A model generated the notes under the pieces. That model was not told the origin of the DNA, did not search any database, and saw only the letters and a list, made by a program, of their open reading frames with translations. A stretch of 64,000 bases of DNA from Leptolyngbyaceae cyanobacterium (lineage in GTDB: Bacteria; Cyanobacteriota; Cyanobacteriia; Phormidesmidales; Phormidesmidaceae), in NCBI GenBank assembly GCA_965263355.1, contig CBDHHL010000056.1, positions 1,568,001-1,632,000 of the forward strand. The letters run 5' to 3'. The translations under genes and the position numbers were made by a program. Shown here piece by piece: positions 23,062 through 38,913 of the stretch. Position 1 is the stretch's first letter. The number at the start of each line of letters is the position of its first letter.

Positions 23062-23788
23062 ATGTTGCGTCGTCTGATTTTGTTATTAATTACCATCGTT
23101 TGTCTAGGGTGTACCCAGGCCAATATTGCTACCACTGATAGCATCTATAGCTACAAACAACCCAGCAGCGACGGCATCGGTAAAGTCTACATGGGTCGCG
23201 AAATTGCCCAGGTTATGGGCCACCAGGGAGCCTACTGGTTAGAACGCCCTAGCCGTGAGGCAGACGAACGACCTGATATGGCAGTGGAGGCCCTGAAACT
23301 CAAGTCAACGGATACGGTGGCCGATATTGGCGCAGGTACAGGCTATATGAGTTTTCGGATGGCGCGTCAGGTGCCTGAGGGTCAGGTACTCGCCGTAGAT
23401 TTGCAGCCAGAGATGATTGAGATTTGCAGCCTGATTGGCAGAGGGTCGTGAGCAGCAAGGTCTTACCAACGTGCAAACCATTCAGGCCGAGGAAGACAAC
23501 CCACATTTGCCATTCGAGCAAGTCGACCTGGCGCTAATGGTGGATGCATACCATGAGTTTGAGGCTCCTCGGGAGGTGATGATTGGCATAGTGGATGCGT
23601 TAAAGCCTGGTGGTCGTGTGGTGCTGGCGGAATATCGGGCAGAGAATCCGCTGATTATGATCAAGCGGCTACACAAAATGAGTGAGGCACAAGTTAAGAA
23701 AGAAATGGCCGCAGTAGGCTTGACCTGGGTAAAAACAGATGAACGATTGCCGCAGCAGCACTTGTTATTCTTTCAAAAAGCGGCCTAG
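23062..23788 (+). pseudogene. class I SAM methyltransferase with lipoprotein-like signal, split by a frameshift near 23427-23436
   Basis: ORF 23062-23451 carries ADIGAGTGY and AVDLQPEM; ORF 23435-23788 carries VDAYHE, LKPGG, LPQQH; removing 10 bp joins them in frame. Confidence 0.8.
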
Positions 23789-25218: not shown

Positions 25219-25643
25219 TTATCCCCGTCTATCTCTTAGACGAATTGTCTCCTCGGTACCCATAAGCACCTGTAACCGATTCCCTAACGGATTAATCAGT
25301 CGATTTCCGCCGGTTGTTGTCTCCAGACTCGCTACGACAACTACTGACTGTCCATAGGGTAATGTCTCACGTTCAAAATCCTTAAATACACTCTCCACGT
25401 CACCCCACCTGTCCAAAGGGAAAGGATAGATCTCATCTTTCGGCTCATGAACGTAACCTGGCTGACATTTTTAACAGGCTTCCTGACCTTAGTTTTCAAA
25501 TTGCCTGGGTTAAATGCAACCAATGATCCCAGAAAATCAAACTAACTTGAAATTCTTTGCTCAAGGTTAAATTTATCACTGTTGACAATGCAACACTAAT
25601 TATCCATAGTTCGCAGTGGAGCGTTGATTCTCAGAAGTTGATC

Positions 25644-26741
25644 ATGAAACGTGTTCTCGCCTGTCTGATTTTAACCATTGCCCTATGTTTAGCCGGGGCT
25701 ATGCCTGCCACTGCTGCTGCTAACAATGTTGTTGAGTTTCCGTTAGCATGGCCCAACAAAAATACAAGTGATTGTGCCAATAAAGTTGGTTCTACCCATG
25801 AAATCACCTATGACCCTAATGGCGGGGATGTCCTGTGGATAACAGGACAAAATTATGATGAAATTGCCCGTGTCACATCGGATGGAGCAGTTAATTTTTT
25901 TAATATGCCCACCAAAAGTGGTCCCCATGGCATTGAATTTGATGCCGATGGCCACCTTTGGGTCTCATTGGAATTTGCAGGCTCTGTAGTCCAAATTTCA
26001 CCAGATGGAGAAATTTTAAAAACTATTGATGTAAAACTTTATGCTGATGGAGCGAAAGATCCCATCAATACCCATCCCCATGGATTAGGCCTGGGGGTAG
26101 ATGGTCATACCCTATGGTTTACAGGCAAAAAGACTAATACATTGGGCAAAATTAACCCTGATGGCTCCGTTGAGCACTTTGAACTGCCTACGGTCGGTGC
26201 AGTGCCTATTTATCTGGCCACTGGTCCCGATGGTAACATTTGGTCCACCGAGCTTGTCGGTAACCATATTGCTCGCATCACTCCAACAGGGGATGTCAAA
26301 GAGTTTGGAATTCCCACCCACAACAGTCGACCGATCGCCATTGTTCGAGGCCCTGATGGCCAATCTATGTGGTTTAGTGAAGAAGCAGGGAATAAGGTTG
26401 CTCGCATTGACATGGATGGCCATATTACTGAATTTCCTGTGCCAATTCCCCAAGCGAATTTTATTCTTGCTGGAATGGCCTTCGATAAACAAGGAAACCT
26501 GTGGACCCATGGCTATGTGGATCAGAATGATCCATTTCCAGAAGGCCCAGACTACATTGTCAAATTTGACGCGGCTATTACCACGGCTACCCCTGGAGAC
26601 CTATCGCAAATACCCATTACCTATTACCAGGTGCCATCTCGCAAAACGATTATGCACCGCATCACTCAGGGGCCAGACGGCAACATCTGGTTTACTGAAC
26701 TAGGCATTGATAAACTTGGCAAGCTGGTTGAGAGATTGTAG
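25644..26741 (+). CDS. secreted virginiamycin B lyase (Vgb)-like beta-propeller protein
   Basis: Signal peptide MKRVLACL..AMPATAA; repeats of GPDG..WF.E..NK.ARI...G...EF.P; ATG at 25644. Confidence 0.85.
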   Translation: MKRVLACLILTIALCLAGAMPATAAANNVVEFPLAWPNKNTSDCANKVGSTHEITYDPNGGDVLWITGQNYDEIARVTSDGAVNFFNMPTKSGPHGIEFDADGHLWVSLEFAGSVVQISPDGEILKTIDVKLYADGAKDPINTHPHGLGLGVDGHTLWFTGKKTNTLGKINPDGSVEHFELPTVGAVPIYLATGPDGNIWSTELVGNHIARITPTGDVKEFGIPTHNSRPIAIVRGPDGQSMWFSEEAGNKVARIDMDGHITEFPVPIPQANFILAGMAFDKQGNLWTHGYVDQNDPFPEGPDYIVKFDAAITTATPGDLSQIPITYYQVPSRKTIMHRITQGPDGNIWFTELGIDKLGKLVERL

Positions 26742-26924: not shown

Positions 26925-27926
26925 ATGAGCGAAATTCCGGCTAATCAACCAAGCTTTGGTAATCCCAAAATCATGCTAGTGGCCTCCCGTGCCCTGGCCG
27001 CATCGCGTCCATCTCTGATCGCCTTTTTAGTAGCCCAGGGGGCTGCCTTAAGCGGTGGCATTGCTGATGCAATCTCCTTTTGCAATGTGCTGTTTGTCGG
27101 CAACTTTTGTGCCTCTCTAGTGGTGGGTTTCTGGTTTGGCTTTGGCAATATTCTCAACGACTTTAAATCGCTGAAGCCCATGGCCATGGCGGGCCTGATC
27201 CTAAATGGCTGCTTAGCCACGTTACTATCTGGCTTAATTTTTACCGGGTTACAATACACTACCGTAACCAACGCTGTCTTACTAGGGCGGCTGGGTCCCG
27301 TGCTATTTGCCTTAGTGGGTGCCGTACTACTGGGTAAAAAGATCCGCAACCTTGAATGGTTGGGCTTTTCTCTTATTGTGGTTGGTGTCATCGCTACTGC
27401 CTTAAAAACTAGCAATTTTCAAGTCAATAAAGGCGATTTTTATATTTTGCTCTCAACGGTGGTATTTGCAGCAGCATCCTTAGTCAATCGCTTAATGATT
27501 GCCAAAACTGCGACCTTACCTGTGGTTGTATTTTCACGCAATTTTATATCTTCAATTTTCTTTTTCTTTATCGCCATCCGACTCTTTGGGCCAGAGCACT
27601 TTGGCGATGCCTTTAGTGGCCAGTTATGGATCATCATGGCCATCTATTCATTGATTGTGATTGTATTTGCCCAATTCCTTTGGTATGCATCCGTTGATAA
27701 GTTAGATTCTCGGACCATCGGACGTTTAACGGTGCTGTCTCCTATTTTTGGTGTTACCTATGCTTTTGTACTCAACGGAGAACGTCCCTCCTCTATTCAG
27801 GTTGTGACATTAATCATTGTGATTGTTGGGGTATTAATTGCCAGCCTCGGGGGACGGCAGCAAAAAACAACATCAACCATGGACATGATGATGGAAGAAC
27901 CTGAAAATGCGGCATCTGCACCATAG
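26925..27926 (+). CDS. DMT/EamA family transporter
   Basis: About 10 TM helices in two repeats; GLQYTTVTNA..L, L.PIFGV.....L.GE motifs. Confidence 0.9.
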   Translation: MSEIPANQPSFGNPKIMLVASRALAASRPSLIAFLVAQGAALSGGIADAISFCNVLFVGNFCASLVVGFWFGFGNILNDFKSLKPMAMAGLILNGCLATLLSGLIFTGLQYTTVTNAVLLGRLGPVLFALVGAVLLGKKIRNLEWLGFSLIVVGVIATALKTSNFQVNKGDFYILLSTVVFAAASLVNRLMIAKTATLPVVVFSRNFISSIFFFFIAIRLFGPEHFGDAFSGQLWIIMAIYSLIVIVFAQFLWYASVDKLDSRTIGRLTVLSPIFGVTYAFVLNGERPSSIQVVTLIIVIVGVLIASLGGRQQKTTSTMDMMMEEPENAASAP

Positions 27927-28054
27927 ATCCATAGTTCTCATTAGTTCTCATTTTTTTTCGAGACGTTAAGCCTGTGGTCGGAGTGTACCCAGGCTGATTT
28001 CATATTTCTAGTTTTTTATGCTGTTATGCTGCTGAAACACCTGAAGGGGTCCCT

Positions 28055-29479
28055 ATGTTTAAAGCCTCCGACTACTCTCATCTACTGCATCAGTTGGAAC
28101 AGTATTTTACGGATTCCACCAACTTTAAACCTGTGGCTAATCCGATTGCTCCAGAGCAGCTACGGGATAAGTTATGCCTGGATTTAACCGCTGATGGTAA
28201 ACCTTTAGACGAACTCAATATAGATATTGCCAATTATTTGAATCATGCTGTCAAAACAGCTCACCCCCGCTACTTTAATCAGCTGTGGGGCGGCTTTAAT
28301 GCCCCTTGTTTGATGGGGGATATGTTAACGAGTGCCACGAATACCTCCATGTATACCTACGAGGTGGCTCCTGTGGCAACGTTAATTGAGAAAACGCTGA
28401 TTGCTAAGCTAGGAGACCTGATTGGATTCTCTAACCCGGAGGGACAGTTCACTACGGGCGGCAGCAACGGCAATTTTATGGCCATGGCCATGGCCTGTTA
28501 TCGGGCCATGCCCACGCTAAAACAAACTGGTCTGGCAAATGCACCCAAGCTGGTGGCGTTTGTGTCTGAAGAAGCTCACTATTCCTTTGATAAAGCCGCG
28601 CATTTGCTAGGCTTGGGCACAGAACAGCTGTGGAAAGTCCCTGTTAATGCTGCGGGTCAAATGGTGGTGGCGGCCCTGGAGGAGCTAATTGAAAAAGCGC
28701 ATGGTCAAGGAATAAGACCGTTTTTTGTGGCTGGGACAGCCGGAACAACGGTGCGGGGAGCCTACGATCCGTTTACTGAGATTGCAGCCGTGGCCCAGCG
28801 AGAAGGATTATGGTTTCACATTGATGGAGCCTGGGGAGCGAGCGTATTGCTCAGCCCGACCCATAGATACCTGATGCAGGGTGTGGACCAAGCAGACTCG
28901 GTTGTTTGGGATGCTCACAAAATGATGGGGATGACCCTGATGTGCTCAATGCTGCTGGTAAAGCAGCGGGGCACTATGCTAAGCACGTTTTCCACCCACG
29001 GCACTGACTATCTTTTTCATGATACTGAGGAAGAGCCGACGGATTTGGGGCCTGGTACTATGCACTGTGGTCGCCGGGTGGATGCGGTCAAACTATGGCT
29101 CACCTGGAAGCACCTGGGCGATCGCGGTTGGGCAAGTCTGATTGATCGCTATTTTGATCAGGCAACCCTGGCCGAAGCTATTATCAATGCCCATCCATCG
29201 CTGACGTTGGTGACGCCACGACAGTCGCTAAATCTTTGTTTTCAATACTTGCCAAGGAACCCTCAGCAAACGGCTGATGACTTTACCCTAAAGATTCGGC
29301 AAAGACTCTGGGAAGAGGGCTTGGCCATGGTGAACTATGCCAAGGTTGATGGCAAACTCGTCTTTCGTCTGATACTTTGCAACAACCAAACTAGTCGGTC
29401 AGACATTGAGTCATTTTTTGACACCTTAACCACTATTGGTCAGCGTTTAGAACGAGAAGGCGACATTAGAATGGCTTAA
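28055..29479 (+). CDS. group II PLP-dependent decarboxylase, probable cysteine sulfinic acid decarboxylase
   Basis: HPRYFNQL, YTYEVAPV, AGTT..GAYDP, HIDGAWG, PLP lysine in DAHKMM; specificity triad W78/S98/Y100. Confidence 0.88.
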   Translation: MFKASDYSHLLHQLEQYFTDSTNFKPVANPIAPEQLRDKLCLDLTADGKPLDELNIDIANYLNHAVKTAHPRYFNQLWGGFNAPCLMGDMLTSATNTSMYTYEVAPVATLIEKTLIAKLGDLIGFSNPEGQFTTGGSNGNFMAMAMACYRAMPTLKQTGLANAPKLVAFVSEEAHYSFDKAAHLLGLGTEQLWKVPVNAAGQMVVAALEELIEKAHGQGIRPFFVAGTAGTTVRGAYDPFTEIAAVAQREGLWFHIDGAWGASVLLSPTHRYLMQGVDQADSVVWDAHKMMGMTLMCSMLLVKQRGTMLSTFSTHGTDYLFHDTEEEPTDLGPGTMHCGRRVDAVKLWLTWKHLGDRGWASLIDRYFDQATLAEAIINAHPSLTLVTPRQSLNLCFQYLPRNPQQTADDFTLKIRQRLWEEGLAMVNYAKVDGKLVFRLILCNNQTSRSDIESFFDTLTTIGQRLEREGDIRMA

Positions 29480-31196
29480 ATTCAGGTGTCACAATCTGCT
29501 CAGCATTAGCCTCAATATAGTCCCAAATTAATCGGCATACTGGCCGTTTCTGACCGATGTTGCAATTCTCATGTAAATCCACATAGGGCAAAAAGTTGTA
29601 TTCATTAAATGCGCCACCGGTCTCAGCTAAGGGTCGAGAAATATCGGTGGTGATCAGGTCAAAGCCTAGGGTAAGCGAGGAAAAGCGGCGGGAAAAGTCA
29701 ATGCAGTCTTGAATAATGCTGGCGTGCAATTGATCCGTACAGTCTACATAGTCTGATCCGGTAGATGCCGTGATTTTTTTCTGGATATAAAAGATTTCTC
29801 TCGTTGGTAAAACAGTCTCCAGGGTGTAGCCTGCCTCTCGCAAAAGAGAACGACTTGTGTCGTCAAAGACAAGTTGATGGAGCGTCGTATGGGCTTCGTA
29901 ACGGTCGGCTCGCCCTGGTTCCTGATTACGCAAATGAAACAACTCTAGAATCGTATGCTTGCCATCACCGATCACATTAGCAGGCCGTCGTTCTACACAG
30001 CCTGCATATTGATGATTGATAATGAGCACCCGATAGTCACGGCCTGAAATGTGTGACTCTAGCTTAATCACATCACCATTGGCCTCAATCACAGCAACAG
30101 CCTGTTTGAGTTGATCAACGGTTTGTAAATTTGGAAATACATTCTGACTGAGAGAGCCAAAATCTGGCTTAGCGACGATGGGATAAGACAGCTGCCCAAA
30201 GGGAATATTAACAGAAGATTTAAAGGTGCCATAGGAGATCGGGACAGCCAATCCATCCTCCCCCATCAGGGCTAATTTGCGAGATTTAGTTTGCTCGTAA
30301 TCGTAATCTTTATATTGGCTGCGAAAGGAGAAAAGACCTGGGTAAATCTTATAGATAAACCCTTTGCCATCTCGTTCAGCTCGAAATATTCTGTCTTCTA
30401 GGCTGTAAATTTTGAGTTCAAACCCACGACGCATGCCCTCTTGCATCACGGTCCAAATGCGTTTGGTCACATGGTGATAGTCAATGCCGTCACTATCAGA
30501 ATGCTCGCTCGTAACGATAGCTTTAGGGGTGATAAATGTTGCCGTATCAACTTTGGTCACGTTTGCGATCGCACCCACCTCACAGTTAATCTCTCGCACA
30601 TTTGCGGTTAGGGGAGTTTGGTATAGAAGGCATGCCAAATCAATTGAATTTCTCACCAATAAACGAGCCGCTCGATTCACCTGTACCGAATGCTTGCCCT
30701 TCGCCTCAATAAACCCTGTTTCACTGTCCATGGGCTGTAACCAAGTCACCACATTATCCGGCGGGTGGGTATAGCCCAATCGGCTAAAGGCCAAACAGGT
30801 TCTGGCAACACAGTCGCCTTCGGCATCCCCCACAATCACCATGCCAAAGACCTTGTTATAGAAAGCAGATTGCCCAGTAGTTGGGTCAATACCAGAACAA
30901 CCAGCCCCCTGTAACCGTTCAATTAGTTTCTGACATTCTGACGAATATTGCCCTCTTGATACAGGAACTCCCAAAATTAGGATATCAGCCCAGTAAATCT
31001 GTTCTAAAACTTGGTTTAATGCATCATGGGGACCTGAATTGGGCAAAATCTGAAAATCGATTAGCCGTAACTGCTGGACCTGACAGCCCTGTTGCCGATA
31101 CAAGTCAGCAACAAGGGTCCATAGAGCACCCGTATTACTGATTTCTGGAGACTGTTTGACTGTGCAATTAATAAAAAGAACTTTAGGAGAATGCAT
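29466..31196 (-). CDS. fusion of NAD(P)H-dependent flavodoxin-like domain and CphA/GshF-type ATP-grasp ligase
   Basis: N-terminal FINCT.K.SP..SNT and ADILILG.P...G..SS...KLIERL; C-terminal P.V.KP, DYRVLI, R.PANVIGDG.HTI.EL, GFDLI..DIS.PL, EYN. Confidence 0.85.
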   Translation of the reverse strand: MHSPKVLFINCTVKQSPEISNTGALWTLVADLYRQQGCQVQQLRLIDFQILPNSGPHDALNQVLEQIYWADILILGVPVSRGQYSSECQKLIERLQGAGCSGIDPTTGQSAFYNKVFGMVIVGDAEGDCVARTCLAFSRLGYTHPPDNVVTWLQPMDSETGFIEAKGKHSVQVNRAARLLVRNSIDLACLLYQTPLTANVREINCEVGAIANVTKVDTATFITPKAIVTSEHSDSDGIDYHHVTKRIWTVMQEGMRRGFELKIYSLEDRIFRAERDGKGFIYKIYPGLFSFRSQYKDYDYEQTKSRKLALMGEDGLAVPISYGTFKSSVNIPFGQLSYPIVAKPDFGSLSQNVFPNLQTVDQLKQAVAVIEANGDVIKLESHISGRDYRVLIINHQYAGCVERRPANVIGDGKHTILELFHLRNQEPGRADRYEAHTTLHQLVFDDTSRSLLREAGYTLETVLPTREIFYIQKKITASTGSDYVDCTDQLHASIIQDCIDFSRRFSSLTLGFDLITTDISRPLAETGGAFNEYNFLPYVDLHENCNIGQKRPVCRLIWDYIEANAEQIVTPEFKPF

Positions 31197-31370
31197 ATGA
31201 GCGGTACCTATATAACCATGGACATCAAACCAAGCCTAGATTAGAGCGACCTGATGCATATCTAAAAATTGTCGCCGCCGTTCCCTAGGCTCTAAGTATT
31301 CCATTAGACCTCACCCAGGTTGTCCTCAGATTGATGAGTTTTTTTTACTAAAGCATCCTTTAAGGTCACT

Positions 31371-32408
31371 ATGAAACTCTTAAGCATTTGCGATCCAACA
31401 AAATATGGCAGTCCGCCCTTGGATGTACCTACGTTTTACCAGCAACTCTCCCTTGACAAACGGGTAGATTTTTATCATATTCCCACACCTCAAGTATTTA
31501 CAGACCGTTTTCCTGGGATCCAAACGGCATTATCAGCCGCAGAATTGCCCTATGATAAGTTCCTGGCCCTAGGAGACCAGGCCCATACTTGGATGAGTTT
31601 AGAAGAGATTGACTTAGTCTTCTGCCGCACCTTAAAACCATTCCCGTCTGGTTATTTAGACACATTAGCGACTTGGGAAACAATGGCACGTTTTGTCAAT
31701 CGTCCCTCGGGTAAAAAAGAACAGATGAAATCTGAGTTTTTGCTGAGAATCGCGAAAGACTACATTCCAGATACCATCGTTACGGCTGACTGGACCGAAG
31801 CACTCGCCTTTTTTCAAACATTTCAAACCATTGTTGCCAAACAGGCGAATAGCTGTGGTGGTCGTGGTGTCTTCAAAATTTGGTATCAGAATAACGCCTT
31901 TCATGTTGATAATATTTTGACGGGAACATGTTCATTTCAACAGTTTGAGACCGTTATGGCTCAGCTGCAGGCGGGCCAAACGGAACCGCTACAGTTTTGC
32001 CGCTACCTGCAGCGTACCGATGTTGGTGATAAACGTATTGTTGTTGTGGATGGTGAAATCTATGGCAGCTATCTACGACGGTCCCAAAGTGGACATTGGG
32101 TTAACAACGTGAGTAGTGATGGCACCTGTACCCTGAGCGATATTACGGCTGATGAGCTAGAGGCCATTCAACAGACCGTCGGTCACTACCAGGCCTTGGG
32201 GTTACATACCCTGGGTTACGACTTTTTAATGGATGATGATCATACCTGGCGGATCAGTGAAGTAAATGCTGGCAATATTGGCGGCTTTGCTCGTCTAGAA
32301 CTGCTAACAGGTGAACCTGTCATGGATCGATTGATTGGCTGGCTTTTAGAGTATGCCCGACGGCCACAGCCTCAGATTGACCCGTTAGCCATGGTTGGAG
32401 TAGCCTAA
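31371..32408 (+). CDS. glutathione synthetase (GshB)/RimK-like ATP-grasp ligase
   Basis: FVN.P, P.TIVT, GGRGVFKI, GDKRIVVVDGE, GYDFL, SEVN motifs. Confidence 0.85.
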   Translation: MKLLSICDPTKYGSPPLDVPTFYQQLSLDKRVDFYHIPTPQVFTDRFPGIQTALSAAELPYDKFLALGDQAHTWMSLEEIDLVFCRTLKPFPSGYLDTLATWETMARFVNRPSGKKEQMKSEFLLRIAKDYIPDTIVTADWTEALAFFQTFQTIVAKQANSCGGRGVFKIWYQNNAFHVDNILTGTCSFQQFETVMAQLQAGQTEPLQFCRYLQRTDVGDKRIVVVDGEIYGSYLRRSQSGHWVNNVSSDGTCTLSDITADELEAIQQTVGHYQALGLHTLGYDFLMDDDHTWRISEVNAGNIGGFARLELLTGEPVMDRLIGWLLEYARRPQPQIDPLAMVGVA

Positions 32409-32941
32409 TGGCCAAACTGCTACCACTCATGCACCCTGTGTTGAATATTCGTCCCGCTGAGCCTAAAGACTATGGTGCGATCGCATCCATCTACAACGAA
32501 GCCATCGCCCACGGCGGCATCACTATGGATGGCCAACCCTATACCCCCCAGGATATTCAGACAACCCTGCAAAAAATGACTGCGCGGGAAGCCCTACTGG
32601 TAGCTGAGAGTATTAGTACCGTTGTGGGTTGGGGGGTGATTAAACGCTATAGCGATCGCATTGGCTATCAGCGCTGTTGCGAAACCTCTACCTATTTAAA
32701 GTTTTCAGAAACTGGAAAAGGGTACGGCAACACATTACAAACAGCCCTGATGACCAAGGTACGAGACTATGGCTACCATCATATTGTGGCCAAAATTGTA
32801 GCGACTAATCAGGGGAGTATTCGCTTTCATCAACGCTTTGGCTTTGAAATCGTTGGTATTCAAAAAGAAATTGGCTTTATGAATGGCACCTGGCATGACG
32901 TTGCTATCATGCAGTGTATTTTAGCCAACCCTGAGGAATAG
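32408..32941 (+). CDS. GNAT N-acetyltransferase (YncA/Pat-like)
   Basis: IR.A...D..AI..IYN, GKGYG, N.GSIRFH.RFGF..VG...EIG...G.WHDV; start overlaps the upstream stop (TAATG). Confidence 0.92.
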   Translation: MAKLLPLMHPVLNIRPAEPKDYGAIASIYNEAIAHGGITMDGQPYTPQDIQTTLQKMTAREALLVAESISTVVGWGVIKRYSDRIGYQRCCETSTYLKFSETGKGYGNTLQTALMTKVRDYGYHHIVAKIVATNQGSIRFHQRFGFEIVGIQKEIGFMNGTWHDVAIMQCILANPEE

Positions 32942-33113
32942 CTCAGCGTTTATCAGGAATTCCTAGGGCGACTTTTTAGAATACTCTCATGATTGAGTCA
33001 TCTCGGCTCGATACTATTCTCCTAGATGCAACATTGATGTCGTTGGCTCGTAGGCGAATGAACACATTTGGCATTATTCAATTCTGTTGTTAGACCGATT
33101 TGAGGTTTTTGAC

Positions 33114-33872
33114 ATGGTTCGAGCTGCACTTTCAGCGTCAACAGGAATGTCCATGGCTCACTATCCTGCTAGTTTACGCACCTTGATTGATACCCTGCAG
33201 AAAACACCTGATTTTACTCCCGAAGGTATTCAGACCCTGGTGAGAGACGCCAATATCTCAGCCAAAGATTTACTGCCATGGGCTAATTTTAATCATCCGG
33301 TCACTGATAGCTATGGTCGTCAACTGGTCTTTGAAGGTGACCATTTTGAAATCATGGTAATGTCCTGGGTCCCCGGCGATTTCAGCGCTATTCACGATCA
33401 TGGTGTGGCCCAATGGGGTGCTGTCCAGTGTTTTGGAGCAGCAGAGCACTATATCTACACATTTAAGCAAGGGGTACTCTACACCCTAACCCCGGCCTAT
33501 TATAGTCCCGGTGTAGTGCATGCCGTTGACCAGAGCCTGATTCATCACATGGGTAATTCTGGTAATGAACCATTTTTGAGCCTGCATGTATATGGTTGCC
33601 AAGGCGCTCAGGGTGCAATTACTGGTAACGCGCGGATCTTTGATTTGTTTGAAGGCAGCATTCAATATACCGATGGTGGTGCGTTCTTTGATTTACCAGC
33701 GGAGCGCATTAATCAGAAACGCTATGGTTTAGAAGCCGATCGGGAAACAACCCTGCGGCATCATCGTTTGATGTGCGATCGCATTCGCCAAATATTCAAC
33801 GCCCAACAAAATAGTGATTATTATCACAAACTCTTATTGCTACAACAACAAATTCAACACCTTAACTTGTAG
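33114..33872 (+). CDS. cysteine dioxygenase family protein (Arg-type)
   Basis: YGRQLV, W.PG..S.IHDH, H.MGN and SLHVY motifs give the 3-His Fe site and Ser-His-Tyr triad; start uncertain (33087-33153). Confidence 0.88.
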   Translation: MVRAALSASTGMSMAHYPASLRTLIDTLQKTPDFTPEGIQTLVRDANISAKDLLPWANFNHPVTDSYGRQLVFEGDHFEIMVMSWVPGDFSAIHDHGVAQWGAVQCFGAAEHYIYTFKQGVLYTLTPAYYSPGVVHAVDQSLIHHMGNSGNEPFLSLHVYGCQGAQGAITGNARIFDLFEGSIQYTDGGAFFDLPAERINQKRYGLEADRETTLRHHRLMCDRIRQIFNAQQNSDYYHKLLLLQQQIQHLNL

Positions 33873-34509: not shown

Positions 34510-35011
34510 GGGCTTTTGAAAAATTAAGCTTATGGTTTTAGATCAGTTAATTATGAAACCGCATAGGAAAGGGAGCTTTAGAATATTGGTGGGGCGCTTA
34601 AAGATGTTGCTGGGGTCCCTCCGAGTTCCCTTTCCGGCAGCACTCAAGTTATCTCTTTATCTCTTTTAGGCAAACTGGGGTTTCCCATGGGCAGGGCCGG
34701 AACGTCGCCCTACACCTCCCGTACTGAGTTATCACTTGTATACATAAAGCTCCAATCATAACGTTGCTTCTTAACGATTCTTAAGCAATAAATTAAACTG
34801 TGCCCTAGTCCCCAGTGACATACGTTTAACTACACTGCACGTGGGTGAATTAATAGCAATCGTTGGATATATTAAGTTAAATACGGAATGGGTGTTATAT
34901 AACGTGTATTCAAGGTCTAGGCATTCTTTTGTTTAAGAGTTGCCGATTTTTTGACGTTTACCAGGAAATAGTTGTTTGCTTGAAAACAATGTAGTACTTT
35001 TTGGGGGTCAA

Positions 35012-36886
35012 ATGACTACAAGCTACAAACAGCAAAGCCTACAAGCAAAACGCCAATTCTATCAGTATAACTATACTCACATTCCCCCGGTGGCGATGGT
35101 AGATACGCTGCCAGAGGAGGAACAGTTTTCGTCTCCATGGCGCTTAATGGTCGCTAAGGTCGGTTTCCAAATCCTAGTTAATACGATCATTGTCAATCGA
35201 GGGGATCATGGCAAATTAGGCGCAGCAGACGATGTCAAAGCCTTTCTTATAGAAACGTTTAAGGAAACCTTAGTAGAACGTAATGGATTTTCTCGCCTAA
35301 AAGTTCTCTGGCAAGGGGCAAAGTTTATGCCCAAACTTCTATTTGGTCGCTTATCTACCAATGTAGAAGAGCTGGAAGCGCTGATTAAAGAGATCATCGG
35401 CAGCGTGAGTGGTGATTTTCTGCAAGACTTTGCTGCCAATGTGCAACAGAAATTAAAGCTGAATTCCCCTAAGGGCCGAGGGGATGACTGCAAAGACTTT
35501 CAGGATCTTTTCAAAACTATTGATCTGCCAGCGATTGCCTATACCTACGAAACGGATGAGGTCTTTGCCTCGCTGCGTGTGGCGGGTCCAAATCCTGTGA
35601 TGTTAGAGCGGTTGACAGGGCCTGAGCCTAATTTCCCGGTGACTGAAACCCACTATCAAGGGGTGATGGGAGACTCCGATTCCCTGGCGGAGGCCTATGG
35701 TGAGGGGCGTTTATATTGGGTTAATTATGGGGTGCTTGGTGGTGCCATCAATGGCTCATTTCCAGGGGAGCAAAAATACCTATATGCTCCGTTCGCCTTG
35801 TTTGCGGTCCCGAAAACGGGGGATCGTCGTCTGTGTTCGGTTGCCATTCAGTGTGGGCAAAACCCTGATGAGTTTCCGATACTAACGCCAAAATCTAATG
35901 CCTATGCCTGGCTCTGTGCCAAAACAATGGTGCAAATTGCTGATGCTAATTTCCATGAGGCGGTTACCCATCTAGCCCGTACCCATTTATTTATTGGGCC
36001 GTTTGCGATCGCAACCCATCGTCAACTGCCCGATGACCACCCTGTCAGCCTACTGCTGCGGCCACACTTTCAAGGCATGCTAGCCATTAATAACGCGGCC
36101 CAGGCCAAACTCATTGCTGCCGGTGGCGGTGTTAACAAAATTCTCTCATCCACCATTGACTCATCCCGCATATTTGCTGTCCTGGGAGTACAAACCTACG
36201 GGTTTAACACCGCCATGTTGCCCAAACAACTCCAACAACGGGGGGTGGACGATACCAATAGCCTGCCCATTTATCCCTACCGGGACGACAGCATCTTAAT
36301 TTGGCAGGCCATCCACGATTGGGTAAACGACTATCTAACCCTTTACTATGCCGATGATGCCGCTGTGCAGCAGGACGCCAACCTACAAGCATGGGCCCAG
36401 GAATTAATCGCCTACGATGGTGGTCGGGTGATCGACTTTGGTGAAGCTGAGGGCCGTCTCCAGACCCTTACCTATCTTACAGATGCCATTACCCTAATTA
36501 TTTTTACCGCTAGTGCCCAACATGCAGCCGTAAACTTTCCCCAAAAAGACATCATGAGCTACGCACCAGCCATGCCGACCGCTGGTTATGCTGAGCTAAA
36601 AGACTTAGGAGAACACACCACACAGGCAGATTACTTTAGTTTGTTACCCCCCCTTAACCAGGCCCAGGAGCAACTCAAACTCCTGCACTTGCTTGGTTCT
36701 GCACACTTTACTCAGTTAGGGCAATATGAGCGCCATCATTTCCAAGACAGTAATGTGCACGTTCCCTTAGAGCGATTTCAGGCTCATTTAGACAAGATCA
36801 CAGATATCATTTACGAGCGCAATCGCAATCGTCCACCCTATGACTATCTGCTCCCTAAAAACATTCCCCAGAGTATCAACATTTAG
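35012..36886 (+). CDS. lipoxygenase
   Basis: AGPNP, W..AK, HEAVTHLARTH, HP...LL.PH, YPYRDD, QHAAVNF and C-terminal PQSINI iron-ligand motifs; ATG at 35012. Confidence 0.95.
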   Translation: MTTSYKQQSLQAKRQFYQYNYTHIPPVAMVDTLPEEEQFSSPWRLMVAKVGFQILVNTIIVNRGDHGKLGAADDVKAFLIETFKETLVERNGFSRLKVLWQGAKFMPKLLFGRLSTNVEELEALIKEIIGSVSGDFLQDFAANVQQKLKLNSPKGRGDDCKDFQDLFKTIDLPAIAYTYETDEVFASLRVAGPNPVMLERLTGPEPNFPVTETHYQGVMGDSDSLAEAYGEGRLYWVNYGVLGGAINGSFPGEQKYLYAPFALFAVPKTGDRRLCSVAIQCGQNPDEFPILTPKSNAYAWLCAKTMVQIADANFHEAVTHLARTHLFIGPFAIATHRQLPDDHPVSLLLRPHFQGMLAINNAAQAKLIAAGGGVNKILSSTIDSSRIFAVLGVQTYGFNTAMLPKQLQQRGVDDTNSLPIYPYRDDSILIWQAIHDWVNDYLTLYYADDAAVQQDANLQAWAQELIAYDGGRVIDFGEAEGRLQTLTYLTDAITLIIFTASAQHAAVNFPQKDIMSYAPAMPTAGYAELKDLGEHTTQADYFSLLPPLNQAQEQLKLLHLLGSAHFTQLGQYERHHFQDSNVHVPLERFQAHLDKITDIIYERNRNRPPYDYLLPKNIPQSINI

Positions 36887-36956
36887 CAGCCTGAGAGAAT
36901 TTAAAGACTACGCCTAACGCTAAAGATCATCCCAAAGTAATCTACATCACACCATC

Positions 36957-38315
36957 ATGGACATTACTGCCCTCAAGCAAAAAGTTCTCAAAGCCCACGA
37001 TAGCCAAGTCAAACTCTCACAACGCTTAGATAAGCTCGGGTATGACAGCTTTCTTGGCAAACTCCTACGCCTGAAGTCTTACTATTTAGAAGGATTTACC
37101 ATGCTCAAAGCATGGCGTAATTTTCTCTACATTCGCAAAGAGAACATTGGCAATACGTTCTTTGCTGTTGACCACGCCATCATGCATGCCGACCACGCCC
37201 AGGTAAAAAAGCTGATGCATGTGGAACCCCAGGTCCGTGGCAATGACTTGGGTATTATTAGGATTATCGATTCCGGCTACATGCTAGGTAATCCCTTAAG
37301 CCTGGGAACCAATGGCAAAGAGCACACAGCCATACGCGCTATCTTTCATCAGGCCTTACCCGATCCCTTTGAAACCTCAGAGGAATTAGGACGTTATGTC
37401 GATGGTTTTCTATCCCAAACCACTGATCAGGGAAAATTACATATTGGCGATGATCTGCCCCGCTTTATGGTGAAAATTTTACATCACCTGGTCTTTGAGC
37501 TTGACCTCTCCGAAGACGAAGTGACCGCTTCACGGGGGTATATCACAGGTCTACCCTTAGCCTCCTTACCAGGATTTCTCACCAAAACCCTATTAGCGTC
37601 TAAGACAGGCCCCATTGCTAAACATCGCAAACAACTGGTTCAGCGATATCAAACCTCGTCAAAATGGGCGGCCTATTTAGAAACTGGCAAACAGTATGGC
37701 CTCACCCCAGACCAAATTGCCAATGGTCTGTTTGACATGATACATATTGCAGGCACTGCAGGTACCAGCGCTTTAATGGGGTCTGTGATTGGTGTTTTAT
37801 GCTTAAATGACACCCTCCGAACCGACGTGATTACAGAAATCAATCGGGTTTGGCCAGGAACAGAAGCCCCTACGGGAGATTGTCTACGTCAAGCCACCTT
37901 ACTCAGTAATGTTATTTTCGAAACTGCTCGGTTGTACCCACCTGTTCGGTTTGTCAGTCAACTGGCAACAGAATCAGGAGAGGTCGAAGTGGGTAGTCAA
38001 AAATGTCCATTCCAAAAGGGAACACGCTTACTGGGTTCGATCTTTACAGCGAATCGTGATGCTACTCGGTACAAAGAACCCGATGAGTTTTCAGTCGATC
38101 GCGACTTCTCTGACCTATTATCGTGGAATGGCGATGACCATGAGCGCGTCTGCCCTGGCAAATCATTGTCCATCGAGTTAATTAAAGTATTCTGTATGTA
38201 TCTGTTGAAGCAATACCAATGGCAACAGTCTACAGAGGTAAAATGGGACTTTGACAACGTAACAGCAGTCACCCCCAATGACTTAGAGCTTCAAGGGTTT
38301 GCCGCGAAGGTCTAG
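36957..38315 (+). CDS. cytochrome P450, atypical (candidate fatty-acid hydroperoxide-metabolising)
   Basis: ExxR in ETARLYPPV, ANRD, heme loop WNGDDHERVCPG; I-helix AGTAGT lacks the acid-alcohol pair. Confidence 0.9.
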   Translation: MDITALKQKVLKAHDSQVKLSQRLDKLGYDSFLGKLLRLKSYYLEGFTMLKAWRNFLYIRKENIGNTFFAVDHAIMHADHAQVKKLMHVEPQVRGNDLGIIRIIDSGYMLGNPLSLGTNGKEHTAIRAIFHQALPDPFETSEELGRYVDGFLSQTTDQGKLHIGDDLPRFMVKILHHLVFELDLSEDEVTASRGYITGLPLASLPGFLTKTLLASKTGPIAKHRKQLVQRYQTSSKWAAYLETGKQYGLTPDQIANGLFDMIHIAGTAGTSALMGSVIGVLCLNDTLRTDVITEINRVWPGTEAPTGDCLRQATLLSNVIFETARLYPPVRFVSQLATESGEVEVGSQKCPFQKGTRLLGSIFTANRDATRYKEPDEFSVDRDFSDLLSWNGDDHERVCPGKSLSIELIKVFCMYLLKQYQWQQSTEVKWDFDNVTAVTPNDLELQGFAAKV

Positions 38316-38349
38316 GCGTCTATAAAAATACAGTAGAGGACTAAAAATC

Positions 38350-38913
38350 ATGACAGGTTCCGTTGTCGCTCAAAAGTTTGAGAACATCGCCACGTGGATG
38401 GTTTCCACTCAACCTACCAATCTTCCTAGTGTGTTGAAAGGCGTATTTTTTATGGATGGCAATATCATGCCAGATGACTGCATCACTATGTATAACCAGG
38501 AATGGGACGATACCAAAAACTGTCTTACGTTGCCCGTTACAGGCCCTATTCAATGGACCTTTCACAGCAACCTTTTAGGCTGGGTCCTATTGCTAGGAGC
38601 AAGAATTTCTGGCTTTCGATACAAGATTCAGTTTGAAGACAGTACATTGCAAAAAGCACAAATTACACCCATTACTTTTGGTATCCCGGTACCGCGTTGG
38701 CTTGTTGATGCCACCATGTGTCAGGCTGAAGGTATTAACAATGGTGATCGTTGGGACCGTAAAAATGTTTGGTTTGGCGGCTTACCAAGGATAGGCGAAT
38801 ATACGCTACGTCGAGTTGTTGATGAAAATGGTCAGTATACTCCTGCTTTTCAGGATATGTTAACCAAGGTGGATGCTGAATGTTTGGTCGTTGCCCAGGC
38901 CTCGGATAAGTAA
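38350..38913 (+). CDS. hypothetical protein, third gene of the LOX-P450 operon
   Basis: 34 bp after the P450 stop, GAGGA RBS, 187 aa with beta-strand-like patterning. Confidence 0.82.
   Translation: MTGSVVAQKFENIATWMVSTQPTNLPSVLKGVFFMDGNIMPDDCITMYNQEWDDTKNCLTLPVTGPIQWTFHSNLLGWVLLLGARISGFRYKIQFEDSTLQKAQITPITFGIPVPRWLVDATMCQAEGINNGDRWDRKNVWFGGLPRIGEYTLRRVVDENGQYTPAFQDMLTKVDAECLVVAQASDK

Follow-up and report, generated by a model that had tools for sequence, protein, structure and literature searches.

Cysteine dioxygenase (CDO) oxidizes cysteine to cysteine sulfinate (CSA), cysteine sulfinate decarboxylase (CSAD) converts CSA to hypotaurine, and ATP-grasp enzymes form amides. In animals, N-acetylaspartylglutamate (NAAG) is synthesized by NAT8L and a RimK-like ligase that together generate an N-acetyl dipeptide. 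A CDO/CSAD route to hypotaurine and taurine has been reported in a marine cyanobacterium, Synechococcus sp. PCC 7335 (Agnello et al. 2013, doi 10.1021/cb400335k, as described in papers that cite it), and in the altemicidin/SB-203208 (sbz) cluster, as outlined in the available text of PMC10989515 and PMC6331615, the CDO-family protein SbzM and the GNAT SbzI direct oxidized cysteine into a natural product. A 64,000 bp stretch of the genome of a Leptolyngbyaceae cyanobacterium (contig CBDHHL010000056.1), hereafter the window, has six adjacent genes that combine a CDO and a CSAD with two ATP-grasp ligases, a GNAT acetyltransferase and an exporter. The conserved unit is, however, a CSAD-independent core of four genes, encoding the EamA transporter, a GshB-like ligase, the GNAT and the CDO. 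The six genes are:

26925..27926, plus strand, EamA/DMT transporter, 333 aa (PF00892); core module
28055..29479, plus strand, predicted CSAD, 474 aa (PF00282); accessory module
29466..31196, minus strand, flavodoxin/ATP-grasp fusion protein, designated FUS, 576 aa (PF03358, FMN_red, plus a CphA/GshF-type ATP-grasp); accessory module
31371..32408, plus strand, GshB-paralogue ATP-grasp ligase, 345 aa (PF02955); core module
32408..32941, plus strand, N-acetyltransferase (GNAT) of the PAT/MAT/ArsN1 family, 177 aa; core module
33087..33872, plus strand, Arg-type thiol (cysteine) dioxygenase, the CDO (PF05995), probable start ATG at 33114; core module

All six ORFs are intact, without internal stop codons, and Pfam and profile searches uphold the protein families given for them in a preliminary description, which did not mention that FUS is on the minus strand. 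The FUS gene is convergent with the CSAD gene, with a 14 nt overlap, and divergent from the gene for the GshB-like ligase across a 174 bp gap, and the ligase and GNAT genes overlap by 1 nt. Given the orientation of FUS, the six genes do not form a single operon but at least three transcription units. Predicted promoters (16, with 17.0 expected by chance) and terminators (9, with 10.6 expected) show no excess, the GC content of the cluster is similar to that of the remainder of the window, and a plasmid search returned no match.

As noted in the preliminary description, a CDO/CSAD pair was already known from a marine cyanobacterium. PCC 7335 has a decarboxylase with a W-X19-S-X-Y motif and a CDO, and also encodes FUS (S7335_3410, 65%) and a GshB-like ligase (66%), but free taurine is given as the end product in the available text of the citing papers, with no mention there of a ligase, GNAT or exporter, and the CDO in the window belongs to a core that is often without CSAD. 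The combination of a CDO-family protein with a GNAT is shared with the sbz cluster, here likened by description of SbzM rather than by its sequence; unlike that cluster, the core has no conserved adenylation enzyme, carrier protein or aldehyde dehydrogenase. In the N-acetylglutaminylglutamine amide (NAGGN) synthetase Ngg (TIGR03103), acetyltransferase and ATP-grasp functions are likewise coupled or fused, and FUS matches TIGR03103 at E 8e-24, but the scores are far under the cut-off and, in contrast to the Ngg and NAAG systems, the fusions related to the core join GshB-like and PAT-like parts, with the building block apparently provided by the CDO.

Anchoring on the GshB-like ligase gave 78 genome loci, many on short contigs, so that the neighbour counts are lower bounds. 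CDO is encoded around the ligase at 53 of these loci, EamA at 49 and GNAT at 42, with CSAD at 10, the flavodoxin part of FUS at 8 and its ligase part at 7. In the reciprocal set of 65 metagenome loci anchored on CDO, GNAT (39), EamA (34) and the ligase (31) again predominate, with CSAD present once and FUS absent, and the corresponding counts for the 32 loci of at least 6 kb are 23, 23, 21, 1 and 0. The GshB-like ligase is rare and yet the same neighbours recur, and the clustering therefore exceeds chance. An even sample of 351 cyanobacterial genomes, which includes the genome at the centre of the search, has the ligase and a close CDO in an identical set of four genomes, one of them the search centre. 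Three of these four are genomes of 2.4-2.9 Mb in which a compact operon ends with EamA, a ligase::GNAT fusion and CDO. Five genomes in the sample have a CSAD-like match, and none of these is among the four core carriers. The core is also present in Pirellulaceae (L066) and on high-GC contigs (L231). Across lineages the order of the core genes is shuffled while membership is retained, and the modules are often dispersed.

The six genes were expected from the preliminary description to occur together in other genomes. The core does recur, as documented by the 78 and 65 loci, but all six genes are together at only 3 of 63 close loci, at one of which FUS is truncated; they are adjacent in the window and at two further loci (L021, L035). 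Homologue names and the flanking genes point to a cyanobacterium of the Leptolyngbyaceae type. The closest named locus is in Adonisia turfae (ligase 78%), and in the closest relatives of the window a YHS protein and a LysR gene occupy the place of CSAD and FUS.

CSAD and FUS behave as an optional pair. The genomes of 50 of the 78 loci were searched, 43 of them in the cyanobacterial-type clade. A close CSAD (63-75%) is present in 18 of these 43 and the FUS ligase in 18: 17 have both, 1 has only CSAD, together with a truncated FUS, 1 has only FUS and 24 have neither (Fisher p 7e-10, inflated by kinship). On a quick tree, each has undergone 7 changes, and 15 of 19 named FUS carriers are also, when counted by name, named ligase carriers. 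FUS therefore tracks CSAD, a pattern in genome sequences that supports a taurine-linked role for the fusion ligase. An enzyme with the W-S-Y motif of CSAD was not found in 21 of the 43 core genomes. A PF00282 family search identified no CSAD-motif enzyme in the complete genome of Acaryochloris marina MBIC11017, whose single PF00282 member lacks the motif, in G001, or in the small genomes G315, G337 and G387. The earlier proposal, in which hypotaurine or taurine is the substrate of the GNAT and of each ligase, is consequently supported for FUS but not for the GshB-like ligase and GNAT, which occur with CDO and EamA where CSAD was not found.

We interpret the locus, with a probability of roughly one half, as encoding a non-ribosomal pathway of two modules that yields amino-acid conjugates with a sulfinate group; the probability applies to the two-module scheme and not to any one structure. 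Synthesis of NAAG and NAGGN provides the model for the combined logic of acetylation and ligation. In the core, CDO would, judging by its family and motifs, oxidize L-cysteine to CSA. This acidic amino acid, which resembles aspartate, would be N-acetylated by the PAT-family GNAT, and the GshB paralogue, fused or coupled to the GNAT, would use ATP to join the CSA carboxyl to a second amino acid, with the product then exported by EamA. In the accessory module, CSAD would convert part of the CSA to hypotaurine, subsequently oxidized to taurine, as citing papers describe for the PCC 7335 enzyme, and the CphA/GshF-type domain of FUS would amidate the carboxyl of a peptide, most likely the core product, with hypotaurine or taurine. 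The genome with the window would then yield both the core conjugate and a form capped with (hypo)taurine. The association of CDO with the ligase, acetyltransferase and exporter points to CSA as a building block, and the two-module pathway is supported by the reciprocal neighbourhoods, the 4/351 overlap, the ligase::GNAT fusions, the core genomes in which CSAD was not found, the co-occurrence of CSAD with FUS, the residues of the GshB-like ligase and the reactions known for the ArsN1/PAT enzymes. Further support comes from CSADs elsewhere whose neighbours are different enzymes that consume amines: in Moorena and G038 a RimK-like ATP-grasp, and in G377 an opine dehydrogenase.

The Y-G-R, H-D-H...H and S-x-H-x-Y motifs of the CDO align with those of the B. 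subtilis CDO, and 16 aligned orthologues all share Y-G-R, the three His and H-x-Y. With its 3-His iron site, SHY motif and an Arg at the position of Arg60, the protein has the features by which Arg-type CDOs are defined in the available text of PMC8050391. It matches solved CDO/MDO structures at only E ~1e-7 and has a conserved C-terminal extension of ~90 aa past the Pfam match, and the orthologues also share a W-G close to the Cys93 site and a second Arg, both of them invariant. In other bacteria, members of this CDO subfamily are fused to an S-adenosylmethionine (SAM) methyltransferase (L225:2948-4570, L226:8007-9653, L249:7971-9602, L253:7938-9617), and such fusions could methylate the sulfinate to a methyl sulfone. 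In operons of the small-genome type (L128, L129, L235-L237, L240, L250, L251), a circularly permuted ATP-grasp is encoded directly 3′ of CDO; it could provide a second ligase, or its position could be due to chance.

The best PDB match of the 28055..29479 product is human CSAD (2JIS; E 6e-96, end-to-end alignment), with GADL1 and glutamate decarboxylase (GAD) having nearly equal scores. It has the group II pyridoxal phosphate (PLP) enzyme fold (PF00282, E 7e-80), with K289 as the PLP lysine, and W78-X19-S98-X-Y100, which conforms to F/W-X19-S-X-Y, described as the CSAD substrate motif in the accessible part of bioRxiv 10.64898/2026.08.27.747329. As GADL1 and GAD score almost as well as CSAD, it is this motif that decides the identity of the protein as a predicted CSAD, and here, as for the CDO with its 3-His, SHY and Arg motifs, the assignment in the preliminary description stands. 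CSAD-like decarboxylases with 44-45% identity and the W-S-Y motif are present in four further genomes, beside a different, RimK-like ATP-grasp. This RimK-like family adjoins the decarboxylase in Moorena and G038 (L097-L100, L140), and is also encoded beside the GshB-like ligase in alphaproteobacterial metagenome-assembled genomes (MAGs; L061, L063). Symploca and Moorena have CSAD-like decarboxylases with F-X19-T-X-H (L101, L102, L141), one of which has a CDO paralogue and a methyltransferase nearby and one of which adjoins a sulfotransferase. In G377 (L183:775-3970), an opine/octopine dehydrogenase, a W-S-Y CSAD (75%) and a second small CDO are encoded in tandem, a trio that is a candidate for a bacterial tauropine-like route. 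Of the five CSAD-like matches in the 351-genome sample, that in G377 is the only close W-S-Y enzyme, and FUS was not found in G377.

The structure predicted for the GshB-like ligase (pLDDT 89.7) has E. coli GshB (1GSA) as its best fold match, with a TM-score of 0.77, and the catalytic and ATP/metal residues are retained, among the conserved positions being R86, K157, GDKR, R236, D284, E297 and N299 of the ligase. It differs, however, in having only 19% identity to GshB and a score of 67.9 bits, far under the TIGR01380 cut-off of 299, and a canonical GshB above this cut-off is encoded elsewhere in all five ligase carriers that were examined. R-T-L-K-P replaces the canonical R-x-D-P-P, and E-V-N-A-G-N-I-G-G replaces E-x-N-V-T-S-P-T, in what we take to be the substrate loops. 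The ligase represents a distinct family, with scores that drop steeply past ~40 clusters at 50% identity. More distant ligases (39-42%), encoded beside asparaginase-family genes, are without the core neighbours and retain an Asp at position 88; this group, in which a gene of the asparaginase/isoaspartyl-peptidase family and a further ATP-grasp accompany the ligase (L065, L069-L074, L078), is a separate, uncharacterized peptide system. In Leptolyngbya PCC 7375 (L054:10001-13973), the ligase and CDO genes are both interrupted and the core appears to be decaying.

PDB matches place the GNAT in the wider PAT/MAT/ArsN1 family, members of which, the ArsN1/PAT enzymes, transfer the acetyl group to the alpha-amine in analogues of glutamate, as stated in the available text of PMC6465285. 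With scores of 118 for NF040503 (E 3e-34; cut-off 170) and 84 for NF040502 (cut-off 300), it falls short of the equivalog level for ArsN1 or phosphinothricin acetyltransferase. In a mapping via 9IGK, R84 would correspond to Arg77 and S82 to Arg75 of the ArsN1 Arg75/Arg77 pair. An orthologue with at least 56% identity is present in 39 of the 43 genomes, and ligase::GNAT fusions occur in other lineages (P0057, P0084, L127-L129). The EamA protein is probably the exporter of the product.

FUS has a RosB-like flavodoxin domain (~1-211) followed by an ATP-grasp (~242-569) of the CphA G-domain/GshF type. The latter superposes on the CphA G domain and GshF ATP-grasp (Z 25-27) and matches NF010623 at E 6e-46, which is below the cut-off. 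Only this part of FUS matches the full-length profiles (153 vs 850 bits for TIGR02068, 115.8 vs 425 for NF002688), so FUS is neither a cyanophycin synthetase nor a GshF: it lacks the N and M domains and the ligase partner domain and has a FLPYVDLH loop after the catalytic E-x-N. RosB, of roseoflavin synthesis, is the sole PDB match of the flavodoxin domain (E 3.6e-23), and FUS 3-211 superposes on the RosB-subfamily flavodoxin core (5MJI; Z 28.4, rmsd 1.6, 207 aligned, 29% identity). However, only RosB 2-223 aligns structurally, the sequence alignments end at RosB 213-224 of 257, and the specialized 52-residue C-terminus is missing; homologues with <40% identity that lack this C-terminus are not RosB, according to the available text of PMC11039241. 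The flavodoxin domain is poorly conserved, with 10 of 200 positions invariant compared with 79 of 335 for the ligase part, and it is absent from 4 of 18 FUS orthologue loci, which argues that the ligase is the working part. FUS is probably a hypotaurine/taurine amide ligase. Roseoflavin-like flavin chemistry was considered for FUS and ranked low, given the missing RosB C-terminus and a flavodoxin domain that is dispensable.

A small membrane module, made up of three unknown proteins and one in which MsrQ-like haem and Rieske domains are fused, is encoded beside the ligase at 22 of the 78 loci and is present at 20 of the 65 CDO loci. It was found in 28 of the 43 genomes, and is present in the same 4 of 351 genomes as the ligase. 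It is absent from the 64 kb window and does not track CSAD (p 0.34). Of 151 Planctomycetota genomes, 10 have the module and 1 the ligase, with no overlap, so the module is not specific to this pathway; our interpretation is that it conducts electrons in a general way and has been coupled to the pathway in cyanobacteria.

Several observations weigh against the two-module pathway. The invariant W-G near the Cys93 site and second invariant Arg suggest that the CDO substrate may not be free cysteine. Members of the ligase clade with the RTLK signature are also encoded in two alphaproteobacterial MAGs and G030, incomplete genomes in which CDO was not found with the window query. A phylogeny-aware test of CSAD and FUS could draw on no more than 4 independent pairs, with none in the opposite direction (p 0.25), and, as most of the genomes are MAGs, absences are soft. 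A bacterial GAD is present in G337 and G387 and, as hypotaurine/taurine production has been reported for a Bacteroides GAD in the available part of bioRxiv 10.1101/2024.03.02.583032, another decarboxylase could substitute for CSAD in these two genomes. It is also possible that FUS needs only the CDO of the core and not the core product.

Ligation might instead precede oxidation, the GshB paralogue and GNAT building an N-acetyl-cysteinyl peptide, an alternative low-molecular-weight thiol, that the dioxygenase then oxidizes or recycles, with CSAD and FUS forming a separate taurine-amide route, for example to a gamma-Glu-Cys-taurine analogue of glutathione. The ligase is structurally nearest GshB, FUS resembles the ATP-grasp domain of GshF in structure (3LN6; Z 26.3, rmsd 3.1, 319 aligned), the CDO subfamily has its unusual extension and second Arg, and the haem/Rieske module accompanies the core in cyanobacteria, all of which fit such a thiol; but the Arg60-type site and SHY motif match those of free-cysteine CDOs, which bind the substrate by way of its free amine (available text of PMC8050391), and a canonical GshB is encoded anyway, leaving this order of events unlikely. 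We consider it quite unlikely that all six genes form one pathway, with hypotaurine or taurine as substrate for the GNAT and the two ligases alike, and with genomes without CSAD importing taurine or using a promiscuous decarboxylase. The core keeps its CDO where CSAD was not found (21/43 genomes), CSAD is at just 1 of 65 CDO loci, and the sole PF00282 member in the complete A. marina genome is without the motif. The CSAD motif, the adjacency of the six genes in the window, L021 and L035, and the GAD in G337 and G387 do agree with a single pathway, as does the Ser that the mapping via 9IGK would place in the GNAT at the position of the carboxylate-contacting Arg75, which fits a substrate with no alpha-carboxyl, although the conserved Lys79 could stand in for the lost Arg.

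In tabtoxin- and phosphinothricin-type clusters, a GNAT provides self-resistance, and the core could by analogy produce an antimetabolite (Trojan-horse) dipeptide in which an oxidized-cysteine warhead is ligated to an amino acid and exported. Membership of the GNAT in the PAT/ArsN1 resistance family, the patchy distribution and the exporter in the core are as expected for this; GNAT::ligase fusions in several lineages, however, fit a biosynthetic step, no further warhead-building enzyme is conserved among the core neighbours, and CSA is not known to be a potent antimetabolite, so that such a product seems improbable. The lowest likelihood, a very slight one, is given to a loose sulfur-handling island, with CDO and CSAD disposing of excess cysteine or making free taurine and the ligases and GNAT having unrelated substrates. 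This would account for the shuffled gene order, dispersed modules and three transcription units, but not for a membership kept despite shuffling across cyanobacteria, Pirellulaceae and other lineages, the exact 4/351 overlap of ligase and CDO, or the fusions. Mycosporine-taurine synthesis was also considered; no genes for mycosporine-like amino acids are among the conserved neighbours.

The CDO/CSAD route is known, and the logic of ATP-grasp plus GNAT plus DMT exporter is of a known kind; the new point is the CSAD-independent core. A literature search found no described pathway that joins CDO or CSAD to ATP-grasp ligases, in agreement with the preliminary description, which knew of no characterized tailoring pathway built on CDO/CSAD, nothing that links bulgecin, ATP-grasp and taurine, and no paper dealing with the substrate residues of GshB; most subscription papers and supplements were outside its scope. 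The core and its product are undescribed in the literature searched, although the 2013 PCC 7335 paper may list neighbours. In bacteria, a CDO is generally taken to be catabolic or to begin the route to free taurine; in the core, the CDO is tied to genes for an acetyltransferase, a ligase and an exporter. Marine cyanobacteria, including small-genome forms, might make and export an undescribed class of sulfinate/sulfonate peptides, an N-acetyl-cysteine-sulfinate-amino acid that would carry a hypotaurine/taurine cap in carriers of CSAD and FUS. FUS would then be the first taurine-amide ligase of the ATP-grasp type in bacteria, and the haem/Rieske module would, in cyanobacteria, redox-cycle the exported sulfinate, an extension that we regard as tentative and rather doubtful. 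If true, exported sulfinate would be an extracellular antioxidant and an unrecognized source of dissolved organic sulfur. For marine cyanobacteria, the pathway would be a further candidate origin of exuded organosulfur, and its two ligases would have new specificities. The core is compact, its four genes being small, and some carriers are in culture, namely A. marina MBIC11017, which lacks CSAD, and PCC 7335, which has CSAD and FUS, so that the product and the roles of the modules are directly testable.

Within the window, a secreted Vgb-lyase-like beta-propeller is encoded immediately upstream of EamA (25557-26741) and is beside the cluster at none of the 78 loci. Further upstream, a methyltransferase-like gene is present as two overlapping ORFs (23062-23788), possibly the result of a frameshift. 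A short repeated element (34611-34712) located 3′ of a DEP-domain gene is matched in contigs from elsewhere. Genes encoding a lipoxygenase, a divergent cytochrome P450 and an unknown protein of 187 aa are in tandem at 34976-38913, possibly as an oxylipin pathway, and this trio also adjoins the core at L001, L054 and L049 and, in part, at L053.

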